NCBI GenBank assembly: GCA_051313645.2
Contig: JBNRSN020000010.1
Span: 94,736,001-94,800,000, forward strand
DNA: 64,000 bases
Source: Centroscyllium fabricii
Taxonomy: Eukaryota
Direction of reading: 5' to 3'
The notes beneath the pieces were generated by a model. It saw only the letters and a list, made by a program, of their open reading frames with translations, did not search any database and was not told the origin of the DNA. The translations under genes were made by a program, and so were the position numbers. Positions 18,830-63,895 of the stretch are shown here, one piece after another (the stretch's first letter is position 1; the number at the start of each line of letters is the position of its first letter).

Positions 18830-18861
18830 GGAGGTGCCGGTGTTGGACTGGGGTGGACACT
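18830..18861 (-). mobile_element. Solo Penelope-like tail micro-insertion
   Basis: GGAGGTGCCGGTGTTGGACTGGGGTGGACA lies between direct repeats CGAAAACAGTATGT (18816-18829 and 18862-18875). Confidence 0.75.
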
Positions 18862-40329: not shown

Positions 40330-41350
40330 ACTTGTCCTTCTAGGTGGTAGAGGTCGTGGGTTTGGGAGGTGCTGTTGAAGGAGCTTTGGCGAGTTGCTCC
40401 AGTGCATCTTGTAGATGGTACACATTGCAGCCACGGTACGCCGGTGGTAGAGGGAGTGAATTTTTAAGGTGGTGAATGGGGTGCCAATCAAGCGGACTGC
40501 TTTGTCCTGGTTGATGTCGAGCTTCTTGAGTGCTGTTGGAGGTGCACTCATCCAGGCAAGCGGAGAGCATTCTATCACACTCCCTGCTTTTCTGGTCAAT
40601 GGTGGCCCCCAGGATGTTGATGGTGGAGGATTCGGTGATGGTAATGACGTTGAATGTCAAGGGGAGTTGGTTAGACTCTCACTTGTTGGAAATAATCATT
40701 GCCTGGCACTTTTGAATCCGAATGTTACCTGCCACTTATCAGCCCAAGCCTGAATGTTGTTCAGGTCTTGTTGCATGCAGGCATGGACTGCTTCATTATC
40801 TGAGGAGTTGTGAATGGCGCTGAACACTGTGCAGTCATCAGCGAACATCCCCATTTCTGACCTTATGTTGGAGGGAAGGTCATTGATGAAGCAGCTGAAG
40901 ATGGTTGTGCCTCGGACACTGCCCTGAGGAACTCCTGCAGCGATGTCCTGGGGCTGTGATGAGTGACCTTCAACCACCACAACCATGTTCCTTTGTGCTA
41001 GGTATGACTCCAGCCAGTTGTGCGTTTTCCTCCCGATTGCCATTGACTTCAGATTTACTAGGGCTCTTGATGCCACACTTGGTCAAATGCTGCTTTGATG
41101 TCAAAGGCAGTCACTCTCACCTCACCTCTGGAATTCAGCTCCTTTGTCCATGTTTGGACCAAGGCTGTAATGAGGTCTGGAGCTGAGAGGTCTTGGCAGA
41201 ACCCAAACTGGGCATCAGTGAGCAGACTATTGGTGATTAAGTGCCGCTTGCTAAGCACTGTCGATGACACTTTCCATCACTTTGCTGATGATTGAGAGTA
41301 GACTGATGGGGTGATAATTGGCTGGGTTGGATTTGTCTTGCTTTTTGTGA
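40330..41350 (-). mobile_element. Decayed CR1/L2-clade LINE RT region (family distinct from the main CR1s)
   Basis: YHPISLLSIISKVME, FDIKAAFDQVWH, GVPQGS, FINDLP and MFADDCTV occur across frameshifted ORFs. Confidence 0.85.
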
Positions 41351-42594
41351 CAACTCTTGTAGATGCATGCGCCTTGCTTCAGGCACTCCTCAGCTACTGT
41401 TAGTACAACTTTTCGAGGGGTCACTATCCATGGCAGCAAAAGGTAAGCCTCGTCACCACAAGACATCCATTTTTACTTCTATCTTGAACATCTTCCTTGC
41501 AGAGCTCAGGGAGAGCTGGACATTTAGCAAATAGTACACCTTTCTATTAAGAAAGATGACAGGGTCAATTGTAGGAGCACACAATGTCATGTGCATGCCA
41601 TCTACTGCATCCTGCACTTGGGTAAGTTAGTAATATGATTAACTAGATGGCCTTATAGTGGCAAACCAGTTGAATGCTACAGCTTCTAAAAATGTTAGTA
41701 ACCTGACCAATACATGACCAAAAGGTATCCAAGGTGACAGATCCCCCATCGATGCTTGATTAAAACTTACGCAATCGTCACTTTCACAGCAATACACAAA
41801 GCTGTCCGGGTAGATGACCTTGGCCACAGGTCTTCACGTAGTAGCTGGCACAGCTCCCCCATTGCATCGTTGGTGAAATGCACTCTTCTCACGCACCGTC
41901 ACCGGATCTGCGAAGCCGGTAATTTCCTTACAGAAGGCAATACATTGTAGGGTGCCTCCTCTTCATATGCTGCCTCACTCTCCTTCCATCCATGCTGTAT
42001 TGCTCCTCCTGCTCCATTAAAATTGAAAATAAGGGAATGCCCATTGGGAAACCCATATCTGGTACTCAAAACCACTTACTGTGGATGGGGATAAACACAG
42101 CCCAGTGGCCTCACAGGCCCTCAGATGTAACCTTTATCGAGGGGAAAGTTAAAAGTGACACTTAAAAAGTCCTTCTGGAACTCCAGCAATCACTCCTCAA
42201 AGTTTCTTCAGGCTGCAGGCTCAGAGTCCAGAGTAAAGCACTTCCACCCTGTCTCAACTGATGCTGGCAACAGATACACCTCTTAACACATCGTTAATTT
42301 CCCTTGGTGCAGTGGGAGATCAAGTCTTGGGGATTTGGCACTCCAGCACTGTTCCTCCACGTTAGCATTTACTTTAATTACCACCCAGCAGCATCACTGC
42401 ACTACTTTGAGAAGGTCCCAGACTGTGATGGAAATTATAGTGCTTCCACGGAAATGGGTCTCATCCCAGAATAAACTTCCAAAATTGCCAGAAACCTCCT
42501 TTCAAGCCCCAAAGTTGCCATAAATTACGAATTAGATTTGGGCCGCCATGTAAGATTAGTATAGAAGTGACTTTTCCTCCCGCAAATGGATGTA

Positions 42595-43058
42595 CAGGTT
42601 GAGCACCGGTAATTCGTTAACCGGAAAGCCGGCAGCTTCAGTCGTCCAGCATAAATTGCCCCGACTGCCCTGCGCATGCGCAAAATGGTCGCCGCGCTTG
42701 ATGCTTCGGCGAAAGATCTGCACATGCGCAGATCATTCACAATGGTCTCCGCAGGCCGGATCTCCCCGAGCCGATCGCGGGCCGGGTCTTCCCGAGTCTC
42801 TCTGAGCCGATCGCGGGCCGGGTCTTCCCGAGTCTCACCGAAGCCGATCGCGGGCCGGGTCTCTCCGAGCCGATCGCGGGCCAGGCCTCCCCGAACGATA
42901 AACGCATGCGCAGACCACTCAAAATGGCCGCCGGCCTTTCGCGGTGATCATTTTGAATGGTCTGCGCATGCGCTCGCCGAAGCTTCAATCGTTCGGGATT
43001 TTCACTTTCCTGGCACGGGCCTGGTCCCACCTGTGCCAGATTAACAGTGCTCAACCTG
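42595..43058. mobile_element. pogo/Tigger-like MITE (copy A), TA target duplication
   Basis: TA|CAGGTTGAGCACCGGTAATTCG ... CAGATTAACAGTGCTCAACCTG|TA, TIR match 18/22; GC-rich interior. Confidence 0.88.
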
Positions 43059-44460
43059 TATATTTGGATTTCCACAAGGCATTCGATAAGGTGCCACATA
43101 AAAAGCTATCAAACAAGGTGAGGGCTCATGGGGTTGGGGGTAATATAGTACCATGGATAGAGGATTGATTAACAGACAGAAAACAGAGTAGGGATAAACT
43201 GGTCATTGTCTGGTTGGCAGGCTGTAACTATTGGGGTGCCGCAAGGATCAGTGCTTGGGCCTCGGCTATTTACAATGTATATTAACGACTTAGATGAAGG
43301 GACACTTCCGCTCCTGGGCCTGTCCAGTGTCGAAATGCGCAGGGCCCATATATCCCAGGGGTGAATGAAGTTCGCAAGCGTCCCTGAGATCACGTGGGCC
43401 AGGCCAGCCAATAGGAGAAGGGAATCTCCCTTCATACTTTTGACAGATAAACCTGTCAAATATATGAATGGAGATCACCCCAAAAACACAGTAAAACATT
43501 AAATACATTAAAAAAAAACTGTCACATTTTTAAAATGAATTAATATTACATTAAATTAAATATTGTAAACAAAAATGTAATTTTTTCAAAAAAATAATTA
43601 AACTTTTTACAGGGCTAAAAATACACTGACATCATCTGACACCGGCTTTCCCTCAATTGGCTAGCAAGTCTGCAGGGCGGGGCTTAACAAGGCCAATCAG
43701 GGGAAAATAGCATCTGTGCGTCGGACGTCACTGGGGGTGCGACAAGAACCCAGAAGGCAGCAGTCCCGCTCCCAACTCGTCTCCGAGTAAAATCCAGCCC
43801 AGAAAGTTAGCATGCAGAATACAGCAAACAATTAGGAAGGCAAATAGCATGTTGGCCTTTATTGCAAGAGGGTTGGAGTACCAGAGTAAAGAAGTCATAC
43901 TACAATTGCACAGGGCTTTGGTGAGACCGCACCTGGAGTACAGTTTTAGTCGCCTTATCTGAGGAATGACATACTTGCCTTGGAGGCGGTGCAACAAAGG
44001 TTCACTAGATTGATCCCTGGGATGAGAAGGCTGTCCTATGATGAGAGATTGTGTAGAATGGGCCTATACTCTCTGTAGTTTAGAAGAATGAGAGGTGATC
44101 TCATTGAAACATACAAGATTCTGAAGGGGATTGACAGGGTAGATGCCGAGAGGTTGTTTCCCCCGGCTGGAGTGTCTAGAACGTGGGAGCATTGTCTCAG
44201 TTTAAGGGGTAGGCCATTTAAGATGGAGATGAGGAGGAATTTCTTTACTCAGAGGGTCGTGAATCTTTGGAATTCTCTGCCCCAGATGGCTGTGAATGCT
44301 GAGTCATTGAGTATAGTCAAGGCTGAGATAAATAGGTTTTTTGACTCTCGGGGAATCAAGGGATATGGAGACCGGGCAGGAAAGTGGAGCCATGATCTTA
44401 TTGGATGGCGGAGCAGGCTCAAGGGGCTGTATGACCTACTTCTGCTCCTAATTCTTATGC
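43059..44460 (+). mobile_element. CR1 LINE fragment interrupted at 43304-43800 by a Harbinger-like MITE remnant
   Basis: YLDFHKAFDKVPH and GVPQGSVLGP-type sequence to 43303; resumes at 43801 (AGAAAGTTAGCATGCAG); MRGDLIETYK ORF. The insert ends in GTAAAATCCAGCCC. Confidence 0.88.
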
Positions 44461-44556
44461 TCTCTGAACAATAAGAAAATGACAATGAACATTTCCTGAT
44501 TTGTTTAATCTAAACAAAACAAAATAAAAATAAAACAAATATTTCCAAGAAATATA

Positions 44557-45281
44557 GGCCCATATATTCCGATCCCTATGGGTGTGTATGCGCTGTGTAC
44601 TCACTCGTAGGGACATTGGAAATGCTGGTTTCAGGCATGCACAGCACATGTGCTGAAAACCGGCATTTCTGATTTGTCAAGGATGATCTTGACAGATCCT
44701 CCTGCTGCCCGAGAGAATGGCCGCTGCGAGCGAATAGTTCTGTTCTTTGGAGACCCTCCGCCCGCAGAAAACCCTTACAATTCTTACGCCTGGTAAAAGC
44801 CTGATAAGAGTTGAAAAAAAGTTTAAAAAAAGTTTCTCTCATTTATTTATCATTTAAAAATACTTTTGTAAAAAGTTTATTTTTTGACACTTAAAAAACT
44901 TTAATTATTTTTTTCAAAAAATAAAATATTTGTTTAATACTTAATTTATTGTAATTTCAAGTCATTTGAAAAATGTGATTAAAAATGTATTTAAAGTTTT
45001 ACTATGTTTTTGAGATAATCTCCATTGATATATTTGACAGGTCTTCCTGTCAAGTGTTGAAGGGAAATTCCCTTCTGTGATTGGCTTTCCATGGCCTACG
45101 TGATCCCAGGGATGCTGCAAACTACATGTGCCCCTGGGATACGTGGGCCCTGCGCATTTGGAGTTTGGAGAGACCTAGGAGCAGAAGCATGTGCATCCCG
45201 GGGGTCCTCGGGTAAGGGCGTAGATTTTTCCAGATCACAGGCCTCCGCCCGCGGGAGGCCTGCGATCGGAAAATACAGGCC
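44557..45281. mobile_element. PIF/Harbinger-type MITE with 3-bp TSD (ATA)
   Basis: ATA|GGCCCATATATTCCGATC ... GATCGGAAAATACAGGCC|ATA; AT-rich centre and GC-rich arms. Confidence 0.82.
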
Positions 45282-46148
45282 ATAGTCAGAAGTGAATTAC
45301 AAGAAACCATACTTTATTATATTTCTCAGAAATGTATATATTTTATATATGATGAATTAATTTGAAGTCTGCTGTTAGGTAGATAGATGTGGCAGCCAAT
45401 TTAACACATCAAGATCCACAAACAGCAATGAGATGGATGCCTAATTAATTTGGGTTTGGGGGTATTGGTTTAGATAAATGTTGGCGAGTAACCTGGAACT
45501 CCTTCCCCTTTACATGGTGCCATCCTAACATCCACTTAAACTGCTGGGACATGCAGACAGGACCTCAGTTTAACATCACATCCAGGGGTTAACATATTAA
45601 AAGAACTTGGATCTTTATAGTGCCTTTCACTTCCTCAGCTTTGTTAAATTTAATTGTACTTGAATTATTTATGTGTGCCAATAATAACCGTAAAAATAAA
45701 TATAAGTCATTGCTTAAAAGGCATTGTGCATATAAATTATGGATAGGTGAAGGGTTCTTTTGCTTTGACGGTGTACAACTGAACACAGTAGCCAGTTAAG
45801 TAACATAATTAGGTCATGAGACATAGACACAGAATGTCCCAAAGCACTTTACAGCCATTGACTACCTGACAATGCAGAAATCTCTCAGTGGCATATTGCA
45901 GTATCAGCCTAGATTATGTTCTCAAATCCAGATATAGGGCTTGAATGCATAACTTCTGATTCAGAGGCAAGCATGCTACCAACTCAGCCAAGCTATATAC
46001 TGGAAATACAGGTCCTTTAGAAAACATGTGCTATTAAAAAAGTTGAATTTATGTATTTTTTTTACCTTGTGTTGAACACAATGAAAAGCAGAGCAGAAGA
46101 ACAAAAGAAAGCATACTTTCACTTTTTAAAGCTCGTCAAAGCACTCAC

Positions 46149-46379
46149 TTCTGAACTTTTTCAATCAGTTCATTTTTGGCTTCCAAGGCTTGCTGCAGTT
46201 TAATCTCCATGTTTGCCCGCTCTGCCACAGCCAATTGTAACTGGTTTGCAAGATCTTCATTTTGGTGGTGTGTGGCTGACATAATGCCCTCGCTGGCACG
46301 TAAAGCACTGTCATAAGTGCCTAGAGCAAAGTTGAACTGGTCTGTGAGAAGAGCCTCTTGTGATAACGACTTGTGTAAG
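46149..46379 (-). CDS. MIPOL1: MIPOL1 penultimate coding exon (231 nt, phase 2/2)
   Basis: Acceptor TGTTCTTTCAG|C and donor AA|GTGAGT. Encodes the coiled-coil LHKSLSQEALLTDQFNFALGTYDSAL...LANQLQLAVAERANMEIKLQQALEAKNELIEKVQK, matching recalled MIPOL1. Confidence 0.93.
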
Positions 46380-47713
46380 CTGAAAGAACATGAACAAATG
46401 TGACAAGATAATTTTTCTTCATTAAATGTAATTGTACTTAAATTATTTATATATACCAATAATTTTTACAACAAAGTCAGTGCTTGTGTATACAAATTAT
46501 GGGCAAGTAAAGTGTCTTTTAGCTTTGACTGTACAACTGAACATGAGACATATCATGTCATGCCATGAGACATAGCAAGATGGTAGCAGTTGACTTTGGT
46601 TTAGTTGTGCCGAGGAACTGCATTACTTCCTATGCCATTTGTCCATTTTGTTAACAAGTGGAACTAATGAAAAATAAAAGAGAAATTAAAATATTTTCTT
46701 TTCTTTGAGAAATTCCTCTTGCATTGGATACTAAAGCTTTCCTTACTTGGCTACCAATCAAAAACTGAATGTAATGCCATATGCCACCTCAGTTAGTCTA
46801 TTCATTACTTAGGTTGTGTTCTACCACTCCCTTGAAATGATTAGTGGGACTGCACTGCATGTTGAGTTGGAGACTGTGCTTCCCAAATCCGTTATACTCC
46901 ACTTCTGCACAATATACATAGTCATAGTCAAACCAACTGGCCACAAGTATGGGTGGAGATCACTTATGCCAGATCTCTACTTGTAATTTGACTGCATTCC
47001 TGATGAACCTTTGGACTAGCGCTTCATTTTGATGAGGAAAGATAATGTCATTGAGATGTTCTGGCAATTTCTCATCATTCATGCAGGATGTGAACATAAT
47101 CATAAATCTGAACCTGGAAAATGAGCATCCAGGATTGCTAGGGAGCTGCTGGATAAGGAAGTAATGATTTAAAGGGACAGTTAGGAAGACACACTAGCCT
47201 AAATTTTCCACTTGGCCATAATGCCAATGTAAGTGTGGTGGGACAGGAGTTCCGGCTGCTACAAGAATGTGCCCTGACCCTAGCTGATTAAATCATTTTG
47301 ACTGTCTCCCTGGTTTCCACTGAGGAATGGAAAAGGCTGGAGAATGGCTGCAGCAGACTGTAAGCATTTGCTGTGGTGCAGAATGACTGGTGGCCTCGGG
47401 GTTAGCGCAAGTGCTGATTTTTAAACATTTTATTTAAAGCATCTTAGATTATGTAATCAATCTCCCTCTCTGACTGTATAGGGTTTCCAACCTCAATTTT
47501 TAAAACCCTCTGCATTGTCCATAGTAATGTTGGACACTAGGAATACACTGCTAAGGTGCAATGTCACAATGAAGTATGTCTACCATTTCCATCTCATTAT
47601 AATGTGCCTACCCAAACTGGGTGGATGTATTTTATCCCCAATGTCACTTCCGACAGAAAATGCCAGAAGTGGCAAGGATGAGCGGCTCCCAAAGAACTCT
47701 GTCATATTCAAAG

Positions 47714-48237
47714 TGCAAAAAGTCACACAACACCAGGTTTAAAGTCCAACGTTTTATTTTAAATCACAAGCTTTCGGAGCTTTTGCCCCTTCGTCAGGTG
47801 AAAGAGAAACTAAAGTCAAAGATCACACACATGGGGGAGGGGAGTTACTCTGGGAAGATGGTCTAACTTGATCAGTATATTTTGATTGTTTTTGAAGAGT
47901 AATATGTTGTGAGTTTGTTTTTGAAGAATATATTGAGTTTTTCTGTCAACTATTTAAAAACTTTTTTGTTTACTTAATCAGCGAGAAGGCTTTGTGCCAC
48001 TGGTTCTGGCACTGCCATATTTTGCTTAGATCCTGAAAATCTGTATATTGGGTTTCTCTATGTGAATCCCATTAGATTTATGTTTTCTGCATGAAGTAGA
48101 GGAGCAATGGAGTGGTGCCAGGCAGTTGAAATTGAACCAAAGGAGGCCTGGGACCACCTGCTGGTACATATAAAGACATATAAAGTGATTTCAAATAAAA
48201 CTGCTGGACTATAACCTGGTGTTGTGTGACTTCTTGC
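47714..48237. mobile_element. Penelope-like inverted ends (47714-47803 and 48185-48237)
   Basis: AAGTCACACAACACCAGGTT...TTTCGGAGC...CTTCGTCAGGTG, with its reverse complement GTGATTTCAAATAAAAC...CCTGGTGTTGTGTGACTT downstream. Confidence 0.65.
47764..47801 (-). ncRNA. Minimal type I hammerhead ribozyme motif
   Basis: Minus strand reads UCAC-CUGACGA-A-GGGGC-AAAA-GCUCC-GAAA-GC-UU-GUGA (one G-U pair in stem II). Confidence 0.72.
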
Positions 48238-48476
48238 ATATAAAGACAGAAGCATGCTTAACTTGATTTGTGCTAGGGAATTTGTATAGGCTAAGATTCA
48301 CCAGGAACGCTGCGACAGAGTAGTGTACATGCCGCAATCTGCCTACAGCCAAACTCCACCACAAGCATACATTGCCAATGGCTGCCAAGGTCACTTCAGT
48401 TCCTAACTTTTATGCCTCCGGCTCATTCCAGGCTTCCAAGGAACATGAGTCAATCTGCAGTGCATCAATGTATCAA

Positions 48477-48510
48477 TGATGTGGAGGTGCCGGTGTTGGA
48501 CTGGGGTGGA
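48477..48510 (-). mobile_element. Solo Penelope-like tail micro-insertion
   Basis: 34-bp TGATGTGGAGGTGCCGGTGTTGGACTGGGGTGGA lies between direct repeats CAATGTATCAA (48466-48476 and 48511-48521). Confidence 0.8.
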
Positions 48511-48714
48511 CAATGTATCAAGGAGGTGATTAATGGATTGTGTACCAAAGCAGCAGTACTTTCCCCATGAACAACTGGAAACAACGAGAGGGCTTTATAT
48601 TTTTTCCAAATGGTAGGATCCTCAGTCTCACTGACATTAAATCTGTGAGACCTTCACTAACTTTAATACATGCAACCACCCTGCATTCCAGTGCTGGCAT
48701 TGTCAGTGACCGTC

Positions 48715-48934
48715 AAGGTCATGAGTATCATCAAACTGTGAGCAGACTTATCTGCTCCCACATGCTATGGGTGTGGGAAACAATATTGACAATATCAACC
48801 ACGTTCTGCCAGACTTGCTGCACATTGTAACACACAGGGTTCCGCTCAGCCCCAAATAAGGCTACCATTCTTTACAGCACCTCTGCCAGCAGAACATCCA
48901 AATGGTCATCACTAAAAGGGGCAGTTCTGCCCAT
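48715..48934 (-). pseudogene. Relic Myb/SANT-like ORF of a Harbinger transposon
   Basis: MGRTAPFSDDHLDVLLAEVL*RMVALFG...QVWQNVVDIVN...HSMWEQI resembles the Harbinger Myb-like DNA-binding protein; contains an in-frame stop. Confidence 0.45.
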
Positions 48935-49711
48935 ATTCACTTGCTGACCTAACTCTTCAATGCAGCCAAAGAAAACAGCTACGTTCAAATGAAGTAGCAG
49001 CCTATCGATTGCTTCTGCTCTCATGATTCTCTGCTCCCTTCCATTCATAATGCTTCCTGTGGTCATGGAAAACGCAGAGGGAATGCATTCAAACTATTCT
49101 AATAAACTGAATTTGCTGAATCCAGCAAATTTAGTTCCTCTTTCAAGTTGCCAATGGATCATAGGAGTGTAACAAACCCGTCATAATTTTTGCCAGGGCT
49201 GCTGAATCATCCTTTAAATGCCAATCTGTAAATGTTCTTCTTTTGATGTAGCTGTGGGAACACATTTTTTACCTAATCCTGTTGAATCTACCTTCTAGCA
49301 AACATACTTACATTACTGTATAGGCATGGCTGATCACAGGCTGACATGTCTTGGCAAGTCCATCCCTATCCAGAATGACTGGCATTATATCAAAATCTGG
49401 CAGTAGGCAGGGGAAAAAAAGAGCAGATGGAGCTACAGAACTAAAAGGTTTCTGTGGATGTGAGTGGATAACATTGTCCTTTTGGAATAATACCTGCACT
49501 CATTCCCTCTCCATGGGCACACCAATCTAACACCACATTTTAAATCAGTTGGACTGCATCATGATAGAACATTGTGTCTGAACTGAAGCATGAGATTTGG
49601 CCATTCATCCGTCAGAAGATTGAAATAAAATAGCTCAATTTTACACTTCCTGTGCCCAAATATGTTACACCAGCATTAAAATGGACATAGGAACTGGTGA
49701 TATAAAATATT

Positions 49712-50388
49712 GGCGCAAACTTTCCTGTGACAATTCGGGTCAATGGATGGCACCCGCTGTTAGTTGAACTTGCTTTGGCCAGTTTAATGTCGACGATATT
49801 TTGCACTGTAAGTTGCTGGAAGTGCAAGACGGAAATGGCACGGCACCCTCTACAAGGTATCTGGGATCAAAGTGAACTGTGCAAGCAACTATGTATCTCC
49901 TTAACCAATCAGATTGAAGCATTGTGAAATGACCGCAAGGTCGGAGAAGGAAGTGTAAGTTAGAATGGTGAATTCAATGTCAAATCAGGTGCTGTACATA
50001 GAAAAATACATAAGAAAATCTCCAACAATAATTAAAACCTGAAGGAATGAAACTGCACACTCACATTAGTTAATGTTCAGTGCCAGAGAGGTTGGCTGGC
50101 AGCAATGAACACTTATCACATCGTTAAAAAGTTGTTTAGACTTGAAATGACTTGACTTAACTTTGTGGCAATTTTACTTCATATCTACCGTGCAAGTACA
50201 GGAAATTCATGCTGTTCGATGCATTTGAATGGGGAACTGGATAGCGACATGCCGTCTCCGACAGCAACTTTTCGATTTCCGCATCTAATCGCGCATCTGC
50301 CCCTTGCCTGAAGATGCTGTGGCATTTGCGCATAAATAGCAGCGAGTGCTATTAGCCTCACCGTTATTTTGACAGCAAATTTTGGGCC
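49712..50388. mobile_element. Harbinger-like non-autonomous element, same family as 59073-59940
   Basis: GGCGCAAACTTTCCTGT ... ACAGCAAATTTTGGGCC termini; shared interior CCTTAACCAATCAGA...GAGAAGGAAGTGTAA...AATTCAATG.CAAATCAGGT. Confidence 0.7.
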
Positions 50389-50876
50389 AACACTTTCTAA
50401 AATAAGGAAACTTAAGTTACTGTTCAACAGCTAAATCTAGGCCAAGATTAGTAAGTTAACTTAATTTTCAGCCATCTTCTCCTGAAGACAGTGATCCATT
50501 CTGGGTACAGTTCAATTGGGAATGGTGGCCCTCAAGTAACTTGCCCAAAGTAAGCATTCTTCAAGTAGTGCCTGGACAGTGAAGCCTAGATTTTTCAATT
50601 GTGACTGCCCGTTTTACGAATCAGAACAAAGGTTGGCGTTCAGTTCTGCTACAACTTTGTTCATTTTAGCACCCATCCAATCCTTGGACAGCCCACTTTT
50701 GGGTGGGCACACAAAGAAGATGGTAAATACATCATTGCCTCATTTTCAATCATTTCTTCCTTGTTCATGCTAGTTCATGGTTTGCCCATATGATGCAGGC
50801 GTTCACAGTAGCTAAGCACAGTAGAAAAGGCAGAAGTGAATTTAAAAAGCCAGCAATTATAGTTGCAAGATTAATA

Positions 50877-51600
50877 GGACACGAAATTCGCGCTCTGGCG
50901 CCGGCCCGGTAGCGCCAGTGCTAATAGGGCGGTTGCGAATTAGCGCTAAAAATAGCGCCCAGCGCTAAATTCAGCTGGGCGCCAAGTTGGGGGCTAACTG
51001 GTAGCGCCCCAACAAATTTAGTGCCCAGCTGGACGTCGGGAATGACATCAGGCCACGCAGTGCTGGGAGGCGCCTGCGGCCGAAATTGGGCAGCGCCTGC
51101 CGTCTTGCCCCTGGGCGCTGCCCACGCCAGCTTTCCCCGGCCGAAAAAGCAGCGCTCGAGCGCTGCTTAAGGGGAAATGTGGCAGTCGGCCATTTTTATT
51201 GCTGGCTGACTGCCAGCACCTTCCCCCTCGGCCTCCCCCGCTGGGGTCAGGCCTCCCTCAGCTGAGCCCGGCACTTTCCTCCAGTGCCGGGCTCGTGCTC
51301 CGGCTCTCAATCGCTCGGCGGCCCCGCGGGGCTCTGGCCACAGCTGCACTAGGCCCCTCCCCTTTAATGGGGGAGGAAGGCCTGCCGTTCAGCGGGCCGC
51401 CGCTGCGGCCTCACTCGCGCAGCGCGGCGCCCGAGCCCCAGTATTCGGCCGCCTCGCACTGGCCCGCCCGATTCTGCGCCCGCCCACCCGTAATGGGCGA
51501 TGCGGCCAATATCGGCATTTTTAGCACCAATCGCTGGCGCTAAAAATAGCGCATTGCCCAGGTCAGCGCCACAAAACGTGGGCTGACCAATTTCTCCCCC
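50877..51600. mobile_element. GC/CpG-rich Harbinger-like MITE with ATA TSD
   Basis: ATA|GGACACGAAATTCG ... CCAATTTCTCCCCC|ATA; repeated AGCGCC/GGCGCT motifs. Confidence 0.7.
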
Positions 51601-52009
51601 ATAGAGATTTTTTTTGGACTGGTTAGTGGTGCTTTTTATTAGGTTTATTTTCTGTTGCTAATAACTTTTCCATTTACCTTTGTGTCATTTGTTTGGGGTG
51701 GGGTGGGGGGGGGAGGGGAGCTCTACCCTGCATATATTCCGCATCGTACAAGTAAATGCTTAATTCTCTGGGTGTTGACACAAATATTAGGCAATCCACT
51801 AAGTTAGCATGCTTTCTGCCAGAAAGGCAAAGTTCGGGGAGATTAAGGGCATCTTCTGCACTCACGACAATTTCTCAGTTATGAACTGAGCTCAAGTATA
51901 ATGAGGTTTATTCATGCGCTAGAACAATAATTGAGCACATCACTAGGAAGTTGAGTGCATGCTTCTGGTGCCTGAATTGACCTGGGGATGTCCTGAAATA
52001 TAGTTCTGC

Positions 52010-55000
52010 TGTAGGAGAGCGAGGTTTCCTAGCAAAATGAGGGAGCCCACACGGAGGAACGATTCACAACAGGTTTTTTACTTCCAAACTCTAAATCAAC
52101 ACAACTCAAAAGCCTGCGAATCACGTGATGCCATCACCGCGTTGAGTCACGTGGGTCCGTTTTCCCGCGCTCTTAAAGGGAAGGTACATTACACAGGTTA
52201 AAGGAAATTATACATGAATGTTTTATATACAAGTATCTACAATGGGATGTGGTCCTGCCACATGCGCCCCCCCAGAATTCCCTTTAACAGAGAGAGTCAA
52301 TCGTATGGGCGGGTTGACGAGACGACCAGAACTGCTGTAGTATCCAGGCATCGGAGGCTGCGGTGTGCTCTGCAGACTGGCAGGCTGTAGGGCAGGCAAG
52401 CTGGTCGGCTGACAGGCTGGCGGACTGATGGGCTGGCAGGCGGGCAGGCTAGCAGGAGGACAGACTGGCGGGCAGCTGGTGTGCCTCAGGGAGGACGCCG
52501 ACACGAGGTCTCCCACGCTTCGGTGGCATTGCTGGCTGTACTGGGGAGTCAGGGTCCAGGTGCGCCAGTTTGAGGCGGTCCACAGAGACGTGGTCGGGCT
52601 TGCCACCCATATCCAGGGTTAAGGACTTCTCACCTGCTTCCAACACATGTAAAGGTCCAGTGTACGGGGCCTGGAGAGGGTCTCTGTGCGCGTCTTGGCG
52701 CACAAACACATAATCTGCGTGCTGCAGATCCTTAGGCACGTGGGAATGCTGGAACCCGTGCTGTGACATGGGGACTGGGCGGAAACATCTGGCCGCTTCC
52801 TGATGCAGAGCCAGTTGTGCGGAGGCAGACCAAGGATCTGTGGTGGTAGGTAGAAAATCGCCAGGCACCCCGAGAAGCTGTCCATAGACCAACTCGGCAG
52901 AGGAGGAGTTGAGGTCTTCTTTAGGGGCCATGCGAAGTCCCAGCAGAACCCACAGCAGCTTGTCTACCCAGCCAGTGCCCTGCTGACTTGCCCTCAGTGA
53001 GGCCTCATTGACCTGTGAAAACGTTAACAGAGGCCGCTTGCTTGTGGATGATAGGCGGTGGTCCTGTGGAGCTTCGTTCCAAGCCCTTGAGCGACAGCGT
53101 TCCAGAGTTGTGACGTGAATTGTGGACCCCTGTACGAAGAGATGTCGGCTGGTACGCCAAACCTGGCCACCCATGACGCCAGGAACGCCCTGGCCACATC
53201 TGCCGCGGTGGTGGAGGCAAGTGGGACTGCTTCTGGCCATCTCGTGGTGTGGTCTACCATTGTCAAGATGTGTGAGTAACCTTGAGACGGTGGAAGTAGG
53301 TCCACGTGGATGTGGTCGAATCTGCGCTCTGGCACCATGAAAGTTGCGAGCGGTGCCTTGACGTGCCGGTGAGTCTTCGCTTTCTGGCATACCACGCACG
53401 TGTTCGCCCAGTCCCAGACATCTTTGTGTAGGCCGTGGCACACGAACTTTGCGCCATCATTCTTTGAGAGACTTTCATGACCGGGTGCGAAAGCCCGTGT
53501 ACGATGTCGAAAACTCATCGACACCAGGAGGCAGGAACAACTGGCCGCGGGTCTTGGACGGAGACGTCGCAGAGTAAAGTGGTACCAACCGCCTGGAAAT
53601 GGACATCGGCCAGTTTGAGGCCCGTGACCCCTGTCCGGTAGGACTGGACCTCCGTGTCGGAAAGTTGGTCTGCCGCCATGCGGGCATAGTCAATGCCGAG
53701 GTGCACGGCATGTAGGGTTGGGCGGGAGAGGAAATCTGTCACCATGTTCTCCTTGCCGGCCACGTGGCGAATGTCAGTGATGAACTCGGATATGAAAGTG
53801 AGCTGTCGTTGCTGTCATGCGGACCACGGTTCAGCAGTCTTAGACATTGCAAATGTCAGAGGTTTATGATCTACGAAAGCCGTGAAAGGGCGGCCCTCCA
53901 ACAAGAAGCGAAAATGCCTGATCGACAGGAACAAAGTGAGTAACTCCCTGTCGTAAGTGCTATACGCCCCCTCATTTTTGCGGAGCTGACGACTGAAGAA
54001 CGCCAGGGGTTGCCATGCGCCGGCGACCCACTGCTGTTGAACCGCCCCAAATGGTGTAGTCAGAGGCGTCCGTCATGTGTGCAATTGCAGCACCTGGTCT
54101 AGGCTGAACCAACATGGTGACGTTGACCAATGCAGGTTTCATATTCTCGAAAGCCAGGGACATTTTGGTTATCCAGGAATGCGGGTGTTTGCCGGTCCTG
54201 CCTCTGGTGGCCTCAGAGTGGTCGCATGAGGAGTGCAGCTTTCGGCACAAAACGATGGTAGAAATTGACCATCCCTAGGAACTCCTGCAGGGATTTGACC
54301 GTCTGGGGCTGTTGGAAAACCGACACCACTTGCACCTTGGCCAGAAGAGGAACTGCTCCTTCAGCCGAGATATGATGGCCGAGGAAATCAATCTGAGCCA
54401 GGCCGAACTTGCACTTGGCGGGGTTGACTATGAGACCGTGCTGGCTCAGCCACTGAAAGAGAGCACGCAGGTGCATGAGGTGCTCCAACTTGACATCCTG
54501 GTGGCCAGTACAGACATCGAGGTACATGAAAAGGAAAGGGAGGTCCCGAAGCACCGAGTCCATGCAGCGCTGGAAGGCTTGTGCGGCATTCTTCAGCCCA
54601 AAAGGCATCCTTAAAAATTCAAAGAGGCCAAAAGGGGTGATGACCGCGGTCTTCTGCACGTCTTTCGGGTGAATGGGGACTTGATGGTATCCCCGGACCA
54701 GGTCCACCTTAGAGAAGATGCTCTTGCCCACCAAGTGCGTGGAGAAATCCTGAATGTGCGGTATGGGGTAGCGGTCCGGCGTGGTGGCGTCATTCAGTCT
54801 TCGGTAGTCGCCGCAGGTCCGCTATCCTCCGCTAGGTTTCGGGACGATGTGTAGGGGGGAGGACCAGGGACTACTCGACCTGCGAATAAGCCCCAGGCGC
54901 TCCATCATCGCAAACTCTGCCTTCGCCACCGCCATCTTGGGGGGCCGTTGGTGGCTATATGGTGCTCTGCACCGTGCTTGGTCGATGCGCTGAGAAGGTC

Positions 55001-56430
55001 AGCTGCCTGAGGCTGGGGAATTCGCTCAGCAGGCGAGAGTAGTCATCCGTTGCTGGAGAGGCGCATGAGATGGTGAGTGCCGTTGTGTTGCTGCGCTGCC
55101 ACGGCATAGAATGGAATGTGGCTGCGTTCATGAGGTGCCGGTCATGGACATCGACTAGGAGGCCGTGGGCGCACAAGAAATCTGCGCCGAGCAGAGGCTG
55201 GGAGACTGAAGCCGTGACGAAGTCCCAGTTGAATCGCCGCCCGTCTAAGCAGACTTCTGCCCGCCGCTTGCCGAACGTGTGGATGGTGGCGCCATTAGCT
55301 GCCTCGAGGGGAAGCCCGTGCTGACCAGCCTGGACGTTGAGGGTGAATGTGGGCAGTATGCTGCACTGCGCGCAGAGAACCGCCAACCCGAGAGGGAGTC
55401 CGTGATGTAGAGGAGCTTCCCCGCTGAACCGACAGCCATTGTCGCAGTGGGAGGACGGCTAGAAGTGCACTGCCGCGGCCGCGAGCTCAGTGGACCGGGA
55501 TTTTCTTTTGAGGCGAACGTGCAGGGCGGGCGACAGCATTGAGCCTTCGTGCCAAGCCTGGCGTGGTAGTAGCAGAGGCATAAGGTCTGGCGAGCTGGGG
55601 TGTTTTCTGCGGGGGTTGGGTGCCTCGTGGCGGCGCAGCTGAGCTTGGTTACAGCAAAACTTTTATCGGCCGCAGACGCGAGTTTACGCAGTCGGTGATG
55701 TATGAACCTGCGAGGGCAGCCTGAACCTGCTCGGGCAGCTGGCTGAGGAACAATGCTCTGAAGAGGAAGCATTGGGGCTCCGATCCCAGTAGTGTGAGCA
55801 TTCGGCTCATCAGTTGGGTGGGGGTAGAATCCCAGAGGCCAGGCAATGTGAGCAGCCAGCGGGCGCGCTCTTCTTTAGAGAGACCGAAGACTTGTAGCAG
55901 TCTGGCTTTTACAGCCACATACTTGCCCGTCTCCGGCGGATTCTTGAGGCGATCGACGACTCTGGAAGCAGTGGAGCTGTCGAGGGCCGAGACAACGTAT
56001 AAGAACTTGGGTGTTGTCCTCCTCGACGTCCCGTAAGGTGAACTGCGCCTTGACGTGTACAAACCACGTGGGCGCCTGCTGCTCCCAAAATGAAGGCAGT
56101 TTCAGGGCCACAGCATTCGCTGCCATGATGGTGCAGAAGCTGGTGAAAAACCTTCACCAACTCGGGGTCACCAATGCAGGAGAGCGAGGTTTCCTAGCAA
56201 AATGAGGGAGCCCACACAGAGGAACGATTCACAACAGGTCTTTTACTTCCAAACTCCAAATCAACACTGAACTCAAAAGCCTGCAAATCACATGATGCGT
56301 CACCACGTTGAGTCATGTGGGTCCGTTTTCCCGCGCTCGTAAAGGGAAGGTACATTACACAGGTTAAAGGGAATTATACATGAATGTTTTATGTACACAA
56401 GTATCTACAATGGGATGTGGTCCTGCCACA
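52010..56430 (-). mobile_element. Full-length, decayed Gypsy LTR retrotransposon
   Basis: LTRs at 52010-52262 and 56175-56430; TSD CTGC (52006-52009 and 56431-56434); PBS TGGTGACCCCGAG (56161-56173, tRNA-Trp type); PPT TCTGGGGGGGCGCA next to 52262; internal order gag, PR, RT, RNase H, IN. Confidence 0.97.
52290..56126 (-). pseudogene. Frameshifted gag-pol of the Gypsy element
   Basis: gag MAANAVALKLPSFWEQ; PR region LLGADFL; [19 protein letters not shown] with broken YLDD; IN HVDLLPPS, TTAYHPQASG. Split over many ORFs. Confidence 0.93.
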
Positions 56431-59072
56431 CTGCAAGATTTCAAGGACTGTGGTTGTGTATTGGATTTCACACAATTTAGTCTTACTAAAACGATAGCAA
56501 AATACTGCGGCTGCTGGGAATCCGAAATAACAAACAGAAAACTCTGGAAAAACTCAGCAGGCCAGGCAGCATTGGTGGAGAGAGAAAGAGTTAACGTTTC
56601 AGGTTGATGACCTTTCTTCAGAGTTTTCTGTTCGTTATTTAGTCTAACAAAAGGTGCACTTACACTACAATTGTAATGTTGGTGTGAAGTGAACTGGAAT
56701 ATAGGCCTGACCTCAAACCTGAGCGAGGCAGAGCGAGACTGGAGGAGAGTTCGAACCTCAACACACAATTTACAATGTACACGCTAAGCATCAGTGTGAA
56801 GCTGAAACCGATTCACACCAAACTAAACTTGCAGTGTAAATGCAGTTGTAAGAACCTCATCGTGGAGGCCCTAGTGGAGCAAGGCTCCTATGAGTAGCAG
56901 GAGCTTGCAGAAGACATGGAGGCCAATCCTTACTGGCTACAGGATATCGGAGGAGATTTTGAGGTCTCCCAGCTGGTGGAAATGGGGTGGTAGCACCGCG
57001 AAAATCGCGGGGAAGAACATACTACACCATTCCCACTTTCGCTGTGGCCATCATCATTTTGCCAGAATAGGCAGATCAGCCATTTTGATATTTAAATCTA
57101 AGTCCTATGACGTCCGTAGAACCCTCACTCAACTGTGTGAAGCGTGCAGGCTCTGCCCAGTATCAGCTGATGGTCCAGCCAAAGAGGAGCCCAAAGTTAA
57201 CCACATATTTATATTTGTGGGTTCAGGAGGACCGGACTGCAAAAAAATAACTTGGGCCGCTACCGCACTGGGACCGCCTCCTGAAAATGTTCCCCGTCTC
57301 AACCTATATTTTTATAGGACCAGAGGCCGGCTGATCCGCTCAATATTGTGGCAGGTGCATGTTTTCTGTTCATAGCCCTATGATATTAAGACACAGCCCT
57401 CTAAAATGGACCTGGCCTCCTGTTGGCATTATTGGCCACCCGAAAACCAAATGGAGGGAAAATCTACCACGTTCGTACTACTCTCTTACAGGATACCTTC
57501 TCTCATCTATCGTATCTGGATAACACATTAACAGTCCGCTGTACATCTTCCTCCTTCCTTCCACAAAGATGCCGTCATCTACTGACTCTGTTCTGTGTTC
57601 AACACCTCACATTTATGCCATCTTATGAAAGCCACTTACACAGTTTTCCAAAATCAATTCCAGCTTTTTTGATGCTGTTGGCTAGTTTTCAAGGTTGGCA
57701 TACATATGTCTGGAAAATAATCCAGTCTGTATACAGTAATGTCAAATTTGTTACTAAGCTTGGTAAATTATGCTATAAAGCTTGCTTACATTATACAAAC
57801 CCTTAGTGGTGTTGGGAATGACATAAAAAGCCACACATCATTGTTTCTTTATTATTAGAATCAGGCACATACTTGCACACCATTATAAATTAGCACAAGG
57901 AACCCATCCCGCCTCCATGCCAATGTCCCAGGAGGCGGTATCCGACCTGTGCTGGGAGCTGCCTCTCCGAGGCAGGAAGGGGATTAGTGCCAATTAACTG
58001 CCTGTTCACATGTAGTTAACAGGCAGTTTTTTGCCCAATTCCTATTTTTAGCCCTGAAGTGTGGGCTTCCCGATGGCTCTGAACCATGCCAAATTAGCGA
58101 GGCGGGCCATCGATCTGAAGGTATTGGAGGGGTCGAGATGTCCGTTGTGCAGGTGAGTGATGGGTGCAGGTGTGCAGAGGTAAGTGCATGAGGTAAGTGT
58201 CAAGTGTTTTAATAAATTTTACTTACCTTTACTTTCTCCTGCAGGCTCCCTTCCTTCAGTTCTCAGGAGTCCCTCAGTTCACCGGCACAGAAAGCAGAAT
58301 GGCCGCTGAACTGTCAAAAGCTGCAGCCTCTGCTTTCTGGTCTGGAGATCTCTCTAACTGAGTCTGAGTAGAAGGACTCAAGTTAGAAGACAGATTGTCA
58401 GTGTTTGACAGCTTCACAGAGCTGTCAAATGCTGATTTTTCATCTGTCAAAAGCTCTTGACAGATGAAATGTCAATCACTGACATCACCAGTAACCAGGA
58501 GTCCCTTAGTTGGCCTGCTGAGCCCGCTGGGCGGGCTTAATAAGGTCAATCAAGGGAAAACAGCATGGGTTGGCCACAAGTTGATGGAGGCGGGACTACA
58601 ACCCAAAAGGTGGGAGTTCCGTCTCCATTGACAAAATCCAGCCCATAGGCTTCAATGCAAAAATGAAAGACTGGGTTTGGATTGCAGTAAATGCATTTAA
58701 GAAAATGCAACTTATACAACATATGCAACTGTCTGACAAAATGCAGAGTGTAGAATTTAGTTTCAAGGTAAAAACTCATGATTACAAATAGCAAATTTGC
58801 ACAAAACAGCATAACAGGACTAGCCAAGGAAGTAAATTGAAATAAACTCGTAAATCTTCTATATTTTTTTCAACAGTTCCTTAGCCACTGACATTTCTGA
58901 AACTATTGTATCATTGACGAGTTGCAAGATCACCATTCAAGAAAAACCTGCAATTGACCCATCACAGCATTCACCAGTTTCTTAAATGATTCCAAGGTTT
59001 ATCCCTCTACTAATCTACTCAGGAAACCATTCCACCTTTTGCTAGTTTGAATCTGTCTATTGTTACATTAGT

Positions 59073-59940
59073 GGGCCAAATTTTACTGTACCAGGGCATC
59101 TAACGGCATCTGTAGACTTGCCCTTGCATGATTTGATATTTAAATTTTTTACGTGGCCAAGTTGCTGAAAGTGCGAGCTGGTAATGTTGCAGCGAGGGAA
59201 ATGGCTCCTGGGACGCGAATGAACAGGCCAAGCAACTGTGTATATATCCTTAACCAATCAGACTGAACGATTGTGAAATTAACTGCACAAGGATTGAGAA
59301 GGAAGTGTAAATTAGAGTGGGTAAATTCAATGCCAAATCAGGTACAGAAAGAGAAATAAAATGAGGGAAATAAAGATTTGATTAAGAGAGAAAGGAAAAA
59401 AAGACAAAGAAAAGTCAAATTAAAATTTTAAATAACATTTTTAAATCTCCAACAATAATTAATATCTGAAGGATTGAGACTCCACACTTGTAATAGTTCA
59501 TTTTCAGAACCAGAGAGGTTGTTTGTCAGTAATTAACATGGTTAAATGGGTACTTAGACTAGAATGAACAAGACTATACGTTGTGGTGAGTTTAATTTGT
59601 ACCGACTGCGCAAGTACAGCAATCTTTACGCCATTCAATGCATTTTCAATGGTGAGCTAGACAGTGAGATGACGTTTTTGTGAAGCTAACAGCGGAACGG
59701 CGCAACTCGGACAGCAACTTTTGGATATTTGGGCTGGATATTCCGATCCCTACGGGTGGGTATGCGCTGTTCACTCACCTGTAGGGACATCGGAAATGCC
59801 GGTTTGAGGCACGCACAGCGCATGCGCTGAAAACTGCCATTTCCAATCTGTCAAGAATCCTCATGTTGCTGTGCCATTTGTACATAAATAACGGAGAGAG
59901 GCATTAACCTCATCGTTACTTTGACAGGAATATCTGGGCC
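59073..59940. mobile_element. Harbinger-like element carrying a nested fragment (about 59730-59856) of the 44557 MITE family
   Basis: GGGCCAAATTTTACTGT ... ACAGGAATATCTGGGCC termini (13/17); internal GGGCTGGATATTCCGATCCCTACGGGTG matches 44557 onward. Confidence 0.72.
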
Positions 59941-61155
59941 AATATATTTTGCGCGTGAAACTTTAATAGCAAAAAACTGTCACTTACTGCAGAACGATTT
60001 ATATTAAAGGTTATTTTTAAAACATCAAGAAAAATGTTATCAATAACACAAGTAAGCAAATGGGTTATTTTCTCCCTCCCGTTTTCTCTTTTCCTCTCCA
60101 GAAGCAATGCATCATGCTGGGTAGAGCTCTGTAGGCGCAGGCAGGTTTCTGATGTACATGAGGCGAGACAATGAGTCTCAGTAACTAATGCAAACATGGG
60201 GAGAAGAATCACAGGCAAGCCACATTGTGTCTTCAGTTGGTGTCCACACAAAATACACACTTTCCAGCACAGGTCATAGCACAGGGATCAAGAGCAGAAA
60301 TCCTGGCTAAGTTTTCTCATACCTATCCCAGAAGGCCAACTGTAGTGCTCTTACTGTGCCATGGGGGTGGAGCTCAATTAACAGTGCAGACCAGGAGCCA
60401 GGGCTTGGCTGTGATTCCTCTCCCCATATTTGAATTGGCTGCTGAGAATCATTGTCTAGGCACTTATATGCTGGTGTTTCAGAAATCTGCTAGCACCTGC
60501 AGAACTCTGCTCAGCATGACCCACGGCCTGTGGAGAGGAAAAGAGAAAAGGGAGGGGAAAAAGAAACATAAGGCCTTCCTGTTCTGAATAACTCAGTACT
60601 GCCCCGTGTAAACATTTAATCATTGGACCATTTGAGCAACAATAGTTTCATTTCGAAAGGAAAATATCAATCTGTACTCACAACCAGTTGCACAAATAGA
60701 AAATTTATTCAAGTGCTATTTACCACATCTACCAAAATGAGTCGTTGTGCAATTTAGGGTATGCTTATGCTGTAACTGTAATGTCACTAAGTATAAAAGT
60801 CACAGTATCATTAAAAAAAACATGGGAGAAAATGAATGAGTTGGTTCTAATCGGACTCCAGAAGGAAGCAGTTTGAGACTCTTACAGAGGCAATTTCACA
60901 CTGACTGGGTTTGACATGCCAGAGTATAAATAACTCTGGTGTAAGTCAAAGTGTGTTTAAAAAGCGCTCGGCGTCCTTTGGACTTCCAGAGCACTTTTTA
61001 AAACATACTTAAACGTATTGAGAGTATGGCTGTTTCCATCAGCATTTTTAAAACGTTTGAACTTTAATGATTAGGGAAGGAGCTCGGCGACACATAAGTA
61101 CATGTGAACAGCTCTCTCTCCTGGACGAGAGAATTCAAATTGGAGCCAAGCAGTA

Positions 61156-63485
61156 TAAGAACATAAGAAATAGGAGCAGGAGTAGGCCAATCGGCCCCTC
61201 GAGCCTGCTCCACCATTCAACAAGATCATGGCTGATCTGATCCTAACCTCAATTTTATTTTTACTCTCCATCCCGCCCAAACCCACGTGATCACCCGGGA
61301 GGCGAAAAACCAGATAAAAAACCCAGTGGCCAATATGGGAGAAAAAATCTGGGAAATTCCTCTCCGACCCATCTAGGCGATCGAAAACTGGTCCAGGAGA
61401 TCACATGGCCAATCTGAACCTAGCCTCATGTCCACTTACCTGCCCGCTCACCATAACCCCTAATTCCCTTTACTTCCAGGAAACTGTGTCTGTTTTAAAT
61501 TTATTCAATGTAGTAGCTTCCACAGCTCTCTGGGGCAGCGAATTCCACAGCCCCACCACCCTCTGAGTGAAGAAGTTTCTCCTTATCTCAGTTTTGAAAT
61601 GGCAGCCCCTTATTTTAAGATTATGACCCCTAGTCCTAGTTTCACCCACCATTGGGAACATCCTCACCGCATCCACCCGATCAAGCCCTCTCACAATCTT
61701 ATATGTTTCAACAAGATCGCCTCTCATTCTTCTGAACTCCAATGAGTAGAGGCCCAATCTACTCAACCTCTCGTCATATGTCACCCCCGATCCCCGGAAT
61801 TAACCTAGTGAACCTTCTTTGCACTGACTCGAGAGCAAGTATGTCCTTTCTTAAATATGGATACCAGAACTGCACGCAGTACTCCAGGTGTGGTCTCATC
61901 AATACCCTGTACAATTGCAGCAAGACCTCCCTGTTTTTATACTCCATCCCCTAAGCAATAAAAGCCAACATTCTGTTGGCCTTCCTGACCACCTGCTGCA
62001 CCTGCATACTAACTTTTTGTGTTTCCTGCACCAGGACCCCCAGATCCCTTTGCACTGAAGTACTTTCCAGTTTCTTTCCATTTAGATAATAACTCGCTCT
62101 ATTATTTTTCCTGCCAAAGTGCATAACTTCACACTTTTCAGTATTATATTCCATCTGCCAAATCTCTGCCCACTCACTTAGCCTATCTATGTCCTTTTGC
62201 AGGTTTTTAATGTCCTCCTCACTCATCACACTCCCTCCCATCTTTGTGTCATCCGCAAACTTTGTAATGTTGCACTTGTTCCCTTCCTCCAAATCATTAA
62301 TATAGATTGTAAAGAGTTGCGGTCCCAGCACCGACCCTTGCGGAACACCACTCGTCACTGACTGCCAGTCTGAGAACGAACCATTTATCCCAACTCTCTG
62401 CTTTCAGTTTGAAAGCCAATCCTCCACCCATGCCAGAATATTACCCCCAATCCTGTGATTTTTTTATCTCGAGTAATAATCTTTTGTGTGGCACCTTGTC
62501 AAATGCCTTTTGGAGGTCTAAATACAGGTTGCGCACCGGAAATCCGGCACGGGCGGGACCAGGCCCGTGCCGGGAAAGTGAAAAAAACGGCAGAATGAAG
62601 TCGGTCAGTGCGCATGCGTGCACCATGAAAAATGGCCGCGGGCATGCGCACAACATTGGAAATGGCCGCCGAACGTCTTTGTGGAGTCTCAGCTGCGGTT
62701 TGTTGCTTATGATGACGGCCTGCAGGCTGCTCCGGGAAACCGCACGCTTCACCTTGGCGGGCGCTCGGGACTCGCAAATTCAAAACATGGCGCGAGTCGC
62801 CGCGCCCTGACGCCATGGAAGGCCCAGCGGCCATTTTGAATGATCTGCGCATGCGCTAGCCGTCCGGCGGCTGCCATCTTGCGCATGCGCAGTGCAGTCG
62901 GGGCAATTTGTTCTGGCAGACTGAAGTTGCCGGCGTTTTGGGTCACGGATATTCGGTGCACAACCTGTACACTACATCCACTGGTTCCCCTTTATCCACC
63001 CTGTATGTTATGTCCTCAAAGAACCCTAGCAAATTTCTCAAACATGACTTCCCCTTTGTAAAACTATGCTGACTTTGTCCCATTATATGATGTTTATCCA
63101 AATGCCCTGTTACTGTTTCCTTAATAATGGATTCTAACATTTTGCCAACCACAGATGTTAAGCTAACTGGTCTATAATTTCCAGCCTTCCGTCTACTACC
63201 CTTTTTAAATAAAGGCGTTACATTAGCAGTTTTCCAATCTGCCGGGACCTTTGCCGAGTCCAGAGAGTTTTGAAAAATTATTACCAATGCATCCACAATC
63301 CCTACTGCCACTTCCCTCAAGACCCTAGGATGTAAGCCATCAGGTCCAGGGGATTTATCCGCCTTAAGTCCCATTATTTTACTGAGTACCACTTCTTTAG
63401 TGACTTTAATCGTAATTAGCTCCTCCCCCCAGAGCCCCCTGTTTATCCAGTGTTTGGATATTTTGAGTGTCCTCTACTGTAAAGA
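61156..63485 (-). mobile_element. CR1 LINE, about 1.9 kb of ORF2 and 3' UTR, interrupted by a MITE
   Basis: KSPGPDGLHPRVL, NYRPVSLTSVVGK, GVPQGSVLGPQLF, KFADDTK and RMRGDLVETYK; tail TTCTTATGTTCTTAT. Confidence 0.95.
62525..62967. mobile_element. pogo/Tigger-like MITE (copy B), TA target duplication
   Basis: TA|CAGGTTGCGCACCGGAAATCCG ... CGGATATTCGGTGCACAACCTG|TA, TIR match 19/22. Removing it restores CR1 VDVVYLDLQKAFDKVPH. Confidence 0.92.
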
Positions 63486-63568
63486 TTGCATAAACAAGGT
63501 ACTGCCTAGCTTTAACTTATTCTGTCGCTACCAGTCTCGGACCAGTAGCTACAGTATAAATGCAACCT

Positions 63569-63818: not shown

Positions 63819-63895
63819 TTGGAACGTCTTCCAAGGAGAAAACAGCAGCTACAGGACTGAAAACCAAGCAGCCTCAGAACACTTCCAAAAACAAC

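Follow-up and report, generated by a model that had tools for sequence, protein, structure and literature searches.

The window analysed here is a stretch of 64,000 nucleotides from the genome of Centroscyllium fabricii (GenBank assembly GCA_051313645.2, contig JBNRSN020000010.1, positions 94,736,001 to 94,800,000 of the forward strand). Within it lie two long interspersed nuclear elements (LINEs), each of which is interrupted by a miniature inverted-repeat transposable element (MITE). The MITEs, termed copies A and B, and the LINEs that carry them, termed hosts A and B, had been picked out in a first-pass annotation, which proposed that the MITE family targets one motif in the LINE reverse transcriptase (RT). 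Both hosts carry the RVT_1 domain. The named sequences closest to the host RT are fragments of vertebrate RTs, with identities of 64-71% for Callorhinchus milii and 45-56% for turtle and bird entries, which points to a cartilaginous fish as the probable source. We take the hosts to be CR1 LINEs, a name that comes from the first-pass annotation and from their motifs.

The boundaries given to the two MITEs by that annotation, and the TA dinucleotide on both sides of each, proved correct (Table 1). Each copy is short and non-coding, has terminal inverted repeats (TIRs) of about 23 bp that start with CAG, short enough (40 bp or less) for the pogo/Tigger type, and combines conserved ends with a variable interior. 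The reported homology of the arms was borne out, with 113 of 146 ungapped columns identical between the left arms and 86 of 110 between the right arms (77-78%). The interiors had been described as divergent and indeed that of copy A is a tandem repeat; however, a weak likeness remains (local score 50.5 against a shuffle mean of 32.6, p = 0.01). The TIR ends match at 18 of 23 nt within one copy and at 19 of 23 within the other, and between the elements at 16-19 of 23. No third copy was found in the window by BLASTN with both MITEs as queries, and the TIR pattern matched four times, at the four ends of A and B, so the earlier count of two copies stands. No Pfam family was detected in either of the two MITE-derived frames scanned, which include the longest open reading frame (ORF) of copy A. 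There was no Rfam match and no tRNA in the window, and a structured-RNA or tRNA identity for the MITEs was ruled out on these grounds. Taken together, the TIRs, the TA on both sides and the lack of coding capacity place A and B in the pogo superfamily, as cut-and-paste elements that are not autonomous. The Tigger label applied previously is fair for the termini (TIRs and TA), which may be closer still to those of mammalian Tigger4/Zombi, a likeness that a literature search did not confirm. Neither an autonomous partner, for which CENP-B_N/HTH_Tnp_Tc5 and DDE_1 domains and the same TIRs would be expected in a Tigger element proper, nor a transposase was seen in the window, and the MITEs were presumably moved by a transposase encoded elsewhere.

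A hairpin beside the right TIR is kept in both MITEs, with a compensatory pair that is T-A in A and C-G in B, which fits ends maintained under transposase selection. Both copies are predicted to fold strongly as RNA (z -8.7 and -5.6). The observed/expected (o/e) CpG ratio is 1.1-1.2 in both MITEs, compared with 0.33-0.39 in the host CR1s. Three GCGCATGCGC-type motifs are present in each MITE, together with two to four AAnATGG-type motifs, and six of the seven CGCATGCG sites in the window fall inside the two elements. The GCGCATGCGC-type motifs are putative NRF1 sites and the AAnATGG-type motifs putative YY1 sites, both of promoter type. Judged from base composition and motifs, the CpG-rich MITEs may be small promoter-like islands.

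Both MITEs are located at the VDVVYLD/KAFDKVPH motif of CR1 RT in identical orientation. The left arms of A and B both face the CR1 5' side, and the first-pass annotation had likewise stated that the orientation is the same, an agreement (2/2) with a chance probability of 0.5. For copy B, one TA alone restores the open VDVVYLD frame; for copy A, a TA duplication requires the loss of 3 nt from the host. The two sites had been placed within 2 nt of each other, and this holds for the right junction of A but not for the left, which lies 5 nt upstream of the B site. At the latter register the left flank of A matches CR1 at 10 of 12 nt (other shifts give 1-5 of 12), and similarity is lost beyond this remnant (8 of 28). 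The CR1-like left flank of A is therefore short, as had been noted, though 12 nt in length rather than about 9 bp. Both insertion sites have a TGTAT context. A degenerate YLDF..KAFD pattern has two matches in the 64 kb, each directly behind a MITE, and none in 100 shuffles; a six-frame scan adds only an L2-like motif at 41090, which has no MITE, and a chance match at 4612. Thus both MITE copies sit in the only two CR1 copies that reach the motif (2/2 in 2/2). The other six CR1 pieces in the window begin further 3', at distances of 211 to 1317 nt from the site. CR1 accounts for 379 of the 3704 TA sites in the window.

Table 1. Coordinates of the MITEs, their target duplications, the host CR1 copies and adjoining DNA (positions in the 64-kb window).
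Feature	Position	Strand	Remarks
Non-CR1 DNA adjoining copy A on the left	41360..42582	-	Left boundary approximate; 0 Pfam families
CR1 remnant left of MITE A, 12 nt	42583..42594	+	10/12 identical to host B
Left TA of copy A (target duplication)	42593..42594	+	Maps to first Val codon of CR1 motif, 5 nt upstream of B site
MITE copy A	42595..43058	+	464 bp, non-coding; imperfect TIRs of ~23 bp, start CAGGTTG; GC 61%, CpG o/e 1.18
Tandem repeat, interior of MITE A	42761..42869	+	36-bp unit, 3 copies; absent from B
Right TA of copy A	43059..43060	+	2 nt upstream of Tyr codon (43061)
Host CR1 A, RT segment from YLDF motif onward	43061..43304	+	
Fragment of another repeat	43305..43799		Replaces ~260 nt of host A; 79% to 44874-45187
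Host CR1 A, 3' part of ORF2 and 3' end	43800..44468	+	
Host CR1 B, downstream of MITE to 3' end	61150..62524	-	Frameshifted, stops; RVT_1 E 7.3e-13
TA duplication, CR1-downstream side of B	62523..62524	-	First two bases of Tyr codon in VDVVYLD
MITE copy B	62525..62967	-	443 bp; orientation relative to CR1 as in A; GC 60%, CpG o/e 1.12
TA duplication, CR1-upstream side of B	62968..62969	-	
Host CR1 B, upstream of MITE	62968..63470	-	Open RT frame (~500 nt) ending VDVVY; RVT_1 E 1.6e-5

The shared site could be inherited if a single ancestral CR1-MITE composite had been amplified by retrotransposition, an alternative already raised in the first-pass annotation, or spread by gene conversion. The divergence of the MITE arms (77-78% identity) is about equal to that of the hosts (72%), as this would predict, and the same orientation would come free. 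However, if the RT had been broken by the MITE, the CR1 parts of a single composite should have diverged neutrally and should differ evenly over codon positions. The mismatches between hosts A and B instead number 50, 29 and 113 at codon positions 1, 2 and 3 (of 250, 249 and 247, respectively; chi-square p 6e-14). The proportions of synonymous and non-synonymous differences (pS and pN) are 0.61 and 0.15, with a ratio of non-synonymous to synonymous divergence (dN/dS) of 0.13 (Fisher p 8e-29) and a dS of 1.2-1.3. The 244 nt of host touching MITE A give a dN/dS of 0.12 alone, and four other CR1 pieces compared with host B display the same codon-position pattern. The host CR1s diverged as working LINE lineages, of two CR1 subfamilies, and therefore MITEs A and B inserted in two separate events. 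Gene conversion between the hosts is also unlikely, because synonymous differences begin 3 nt into the shared flank, right beside the junction, and leave no co-converted tract. Moreover, the TA used differs between A and B, so there is no single shared junction, and inspection of the right ends revealed no AG that could serve frame-restoring splicing; intron-like splicing of the MITE was ruled out in the same way. A single inherited composite is accordingly rejected and we give it next to no weight, while the earlier preference for independent insertions is upheld by hosts that differ mostly at synonymous sites.

Two independent insertions might still have been followed by spread via RNA, whereby an active CR1 acted in trans on a MITE-bearing copy and MITE-headed 3' halves became over-represented. 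Host A is possibly a 5'-truncated retrocopy of such a MITE-bearing CR1, in which case the coincidence of sites would need only a mild hotspot. CR1 similarity stops 12 nt before MITE A and 3 nt are lost at that end, which is consistent with this, and no 5' part of host A was found elsewhere in the window. The CpG-rich MITEs with their repeated GCGCATGCGC- and AAnATGG-type motifs, which are putative promoter sites, and the strong predicted RNA folds point the same way. However, RNA spread alone does not account for the insertion of MITEs into two CR1 lineages at one motif. In addition, a simple deletion is enough to explain why host A lacks its 5' part, because a second deletion junction is present in that copy at 43305. 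We consider spread via RNA improbable.

A more serious competitor is coincidence, in which a commonplace pogo-type MITE, preferring a short sequence such as TG-TA-T, landed twice near one CR1 codon and was picked out by a scan of many windows. Chance estimates were made from all TA pairs of the window, with both MITEs removed and homologous repeat positions counted. Pairs at homologous positions within 2 nt numbered 419 of 6,820,971 (6e-5), and within 10 nt there were 960 (1.4e-4). When the TGTAT context was imposed, leaving 173 TAs in the window, six of 14,878 pairs qualified (4e-4), and an 8-bp motif fitted afterwards to both sites left 29 sites and one of 406 pairs (2.5e-3, orientation included). 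The same orientation adds a factor of 2 for the any-TA and TGTAT nulls. These per-pair probabilities, which range from 6e-5 to 2.5e-3, argue against coincidence, as does the fact that chance would favour the common 3' part of CR1; only two of the eight CR1 pieces reach this site. Conversely, the TGTAT context common to both sites recurs in the window (173 sites), as does the fitted motif (29 sites). For an assumed scan of 60,000 windows, each holding one MITE pair, about 2 (P 3e-5), 12 (2e-4) or 150 (2.5e-3) chance cases would be expected, depending on the null. On balance coincidence appears unlikely, although it carries more weight than the other alternatives. Targeting is placed ahead of chance, as a judgement and not as a computed result, because many more such windows would be expected if a targeting family numbered some ten thousand copies. 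The probable explanation, in our view, is that a pogo-type family prefers this site in CR1 RT. The first-pass proposal that the family targets the motif thus survives as the best remaining explanation, with the qualification that it rests on two events, which a short TA-context preference together with a genome-wide look-elsewhere effect might also produce by chance.

Several observations weigh against a targeting preference, beyond the number of chance cases given above. The evidence consists of two events that were noticed after the fact. The two junctions of A disagree by 3 nt, with 3 nt of CR1 missing across the MITE, and the insertion position is not identical in A and B, being offset by 2 nt at the right junction of A and by 5 nt at the left, a difference in register that also speaks for coincidence; the offset is that of a preference and not of a strict site. 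Conservation of the insertion site is only moderate, ranking 27 of 162 protein windows, and 8-26% of DNA windows are as similar between the hosts as the site itself; the idea of an exceptionally conserved site was dropped. No target copy capable of guiding insertion was found inside the MITEs (p 0.24-1.0 in eight comparisons), and guide-like MITE-target complementarity was rejected. Only two of the eight variable TIR positions co-vary by element, so the TIRs are barely element-specific, and their co-variation was abandoned as proof of two MITE subfamilies. No transposase was found.

Searches beyond the window gave no third case, a result that is likewise to be expected under coincidence. The DNA collections searched were non-eukaryotic, and all positive evidence comes from the 64-kb window; the protein sets favour intact ORFs and the GTDB and plasmid sets are prokaryotic, which leaves little power to detect junctions. 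The right-junction peptide of B, compared with 1.84 billion representatives, gave 12 matches, all of them plain RT with no MITE-derived sequence, and a second B junction query gave 10 matches with no junction. A search with the left-junction region returned no candidates. No junction was present in the best 120 of 426 matches to the host B ORF. Among these RT relatives 89 reach the site, 14 of them at 60% identity or more, and none of the 14 has a junction, a mild argument against the site being heavily occupied in all related genomes. The 23-nt MITE pattern had no match in the GTDB genomes, and MITE B had none in the plasmids. An RT alignment identified four loci in the GTDB genomes, none with TIR or MITE similarity. 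The four loci (L001, positions 1-621; L002-L004) are CR1-like RT sequences in prokaryotic assemblies. L001 ends before the site; this contig of 621 bp, from an assembly of Aeromonas cavernicola, shares 72% identity with the host B RT and is probably animal DNA carried into that assembly. The TIR pattern had no match in papers in a literature search. A full-text literature search, which did not extend to Repbase, Dfam or most subscription journals, found no report of a pogo or mariner element targeting CR1 or any LINE, although a curated note may exist.

The surroundings of the two hosts are themselves rich in repeats. The non-CR1 DNA to the left of copy A, a putative decayed Harbinger-type element, gave only a weak DUF8040 lead (score 0.89, fourth row). 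Further left, a LINE fragment on the minus strand (40300-41350), which we take to be L2-like, carries its related RT motif at 41090 uninterrupted and without a MITE. A short inverted-repeat family is found at 43305-43799, 44558-45280 and 59738-59865, and it is a truncated copy of this family that replaces part of host A. A CR1 3'-end variant of 179 nt is 94% identical between 32217-32395 and 61159-61335, which suggests that the host B subfamily, and likewise MITE insertion B, is fairly young. Upstream, host B ends at an apparent long terminal repeat (LTR) at ~63478-64000, read by eye; near 63805, after the LTR-like end, is what we presume by eye to be a primer-binding-like site.

Elsewhere in the window, which contains many retroelement fragments, an ORF at 16225-17502 (+) encodes a FoxA/HNF3-type forkhead protein with Forkhead, Forkhead_N and HNF_C domains. 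An LTR retrotransposon at 52010-56430 has two ~255-bp LTRs that are 93% identical, with RT, integrase and DUF7041 on the minus strand split over several frames, and an integrase piece at 26-522 is related to it (67%). A short repeat family occurs at 10279-10374, 21397-21554, 47710-47804 and 48185-48238, once as a palindrome. A perfect 30-bp inverted pair (18826-18855 and 21558-21587) is separated by 2.7 kb, and a minisatellite at 7049-7272 comprises 6.8 copies of a 33-bp unit with 93% matches.

Comparison with known systems sets A and B among the pogo-superfamily MITEs (Tigger, pogoR, Lemi and Passer), with which they share the TA duplication, short TIRs and CAGGT termini. A TA duplication combined with short TIRs that begin with CAG characterises pogo elements (PMC9219625, PMC7386202). 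Tigger TIRs span 8-33 bp, and 18-23 bp in Chondrichthyes (PMC9219625), and CAGGT termini are present in the pogoR, Tigger and Lemi rows of two supplements (PMC7386202 and PMC9219625). None of the five chondrichthyan Tigger rows in the PMC9219625 supplement has the A/B TIR, as four start with CAGTA and one with CCAGC. The known members differ from A and B in that they need only TA or a short palindrome. The pogo target motif is described as TA only, with motifs that extend no more than 3 bp beyond the duplication (PMC3276498), mariner/Tc1 motifs reach up to 8 bp (PMC3706591), and the Passer target is an 8-bp palindrome (PMC9976928). Because ordinary pogo/mariner targets are short and palindromic, no orientation bias is expected of them.

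Target-specific DNA transposons are rare, and those named for eukaryotes in a 2022 paper, namely Pokey (28S rDNA), CryptonV (microsatellites) and Dada (small RNA genes) (PMC8869645), are neither TA-duplicating pogo/mariner elements nor LINE-targeting. Dada elements are DNA transposons that occupy fixed sites, in a fixed orientation, within conserved multicopy sequence (PMC3706591, PMC8869645), to which the common orientation and nearby sites of A and B bear comparison. However, Dada elements have no TIRs, make 6-7-bp duplications and target snRNA or tRNA genes (PMC3706591), whereas A and B have TIRs and a 2-bp duplication. Membership of Dada was ruled out by the TIRs, duplication length and target; the target-specific Dada families are reported from no vertebrates outside ray-finned fish (PMC8869645, PMC3706591). 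Pokey, a piggyBac element, prefers one 28S rDNA site, inserts elsewhere too and has MITEs (PMC8869645, PMC3706591), and a loose preference of this type fits the 2-5-nt scatter of the A and B sites. In contrast to A and B, Pokey and CryptonV belong to other superfamilies and target rDNA or microsatellites, not a LINE coding motif (PMC8869645). Non-LTR retrotransposons that target other transposable elements share the use of a mobile element as a landing site (PMC8869645). They are retroelements with their own endonuclease, whereas here a DNA transposon lies in a retroelement.

If the favoured preference for the CR1 RT site is correct, a transposase supplied in trans would need TA and would also prefer the DNA around the conserved D-V-V-Y-L-D / K-A-F-D-K-V-P-H codons of CR1 RT. 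Asymmetric recognition of nearby CR1 sequence, either directly or via a CR1-binding host factor or tethering, would precede insertion at a TA lying no more than a few bases away. This is the simplest mechanism for a shared orientation combined with a choice of TA that varies by 2 to 5 nt. By analogy with elements that target rDNA and small RNA genes, the gain for the element would be a very abundant and harmless landing site. More tentatively, a pogo-type transposase may have evolved long asymmetric recognition of the CR1 motif, with several MITE subfamilies homing there in divergent CR1 lineages and filling a large proportion of the sites. If this is true, a DNA transposon would be parasitising, and perhaps restraining, the dominant LINE, with a TA-type target far beyond the 8 bp known for the group. 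Any intact CR1 that was hit would lose its RT, though any consequence for the host or for the element is hypothetical; the suggestion in the first-pass annotation of a hyperparasite that disables LINEs likewise stays a hypothesis, as nothing indicates that the hosts were active when hit.

Overall, if confirmed, a preference of this kind would add a new target class, the LINE, to target-specific DNA transposons, one that was not found in the literature searched. CR1-MITE chimeras would be a trap for repeat libraries, corrupting CR1 consensus sequences. Confirmation would also mean that a preference for site and orientation can arise in the group of transposases on which widely used gene-delivery tools are based, a good reason to look for the autonomous partner, and that one mobile element has directly shaped another.

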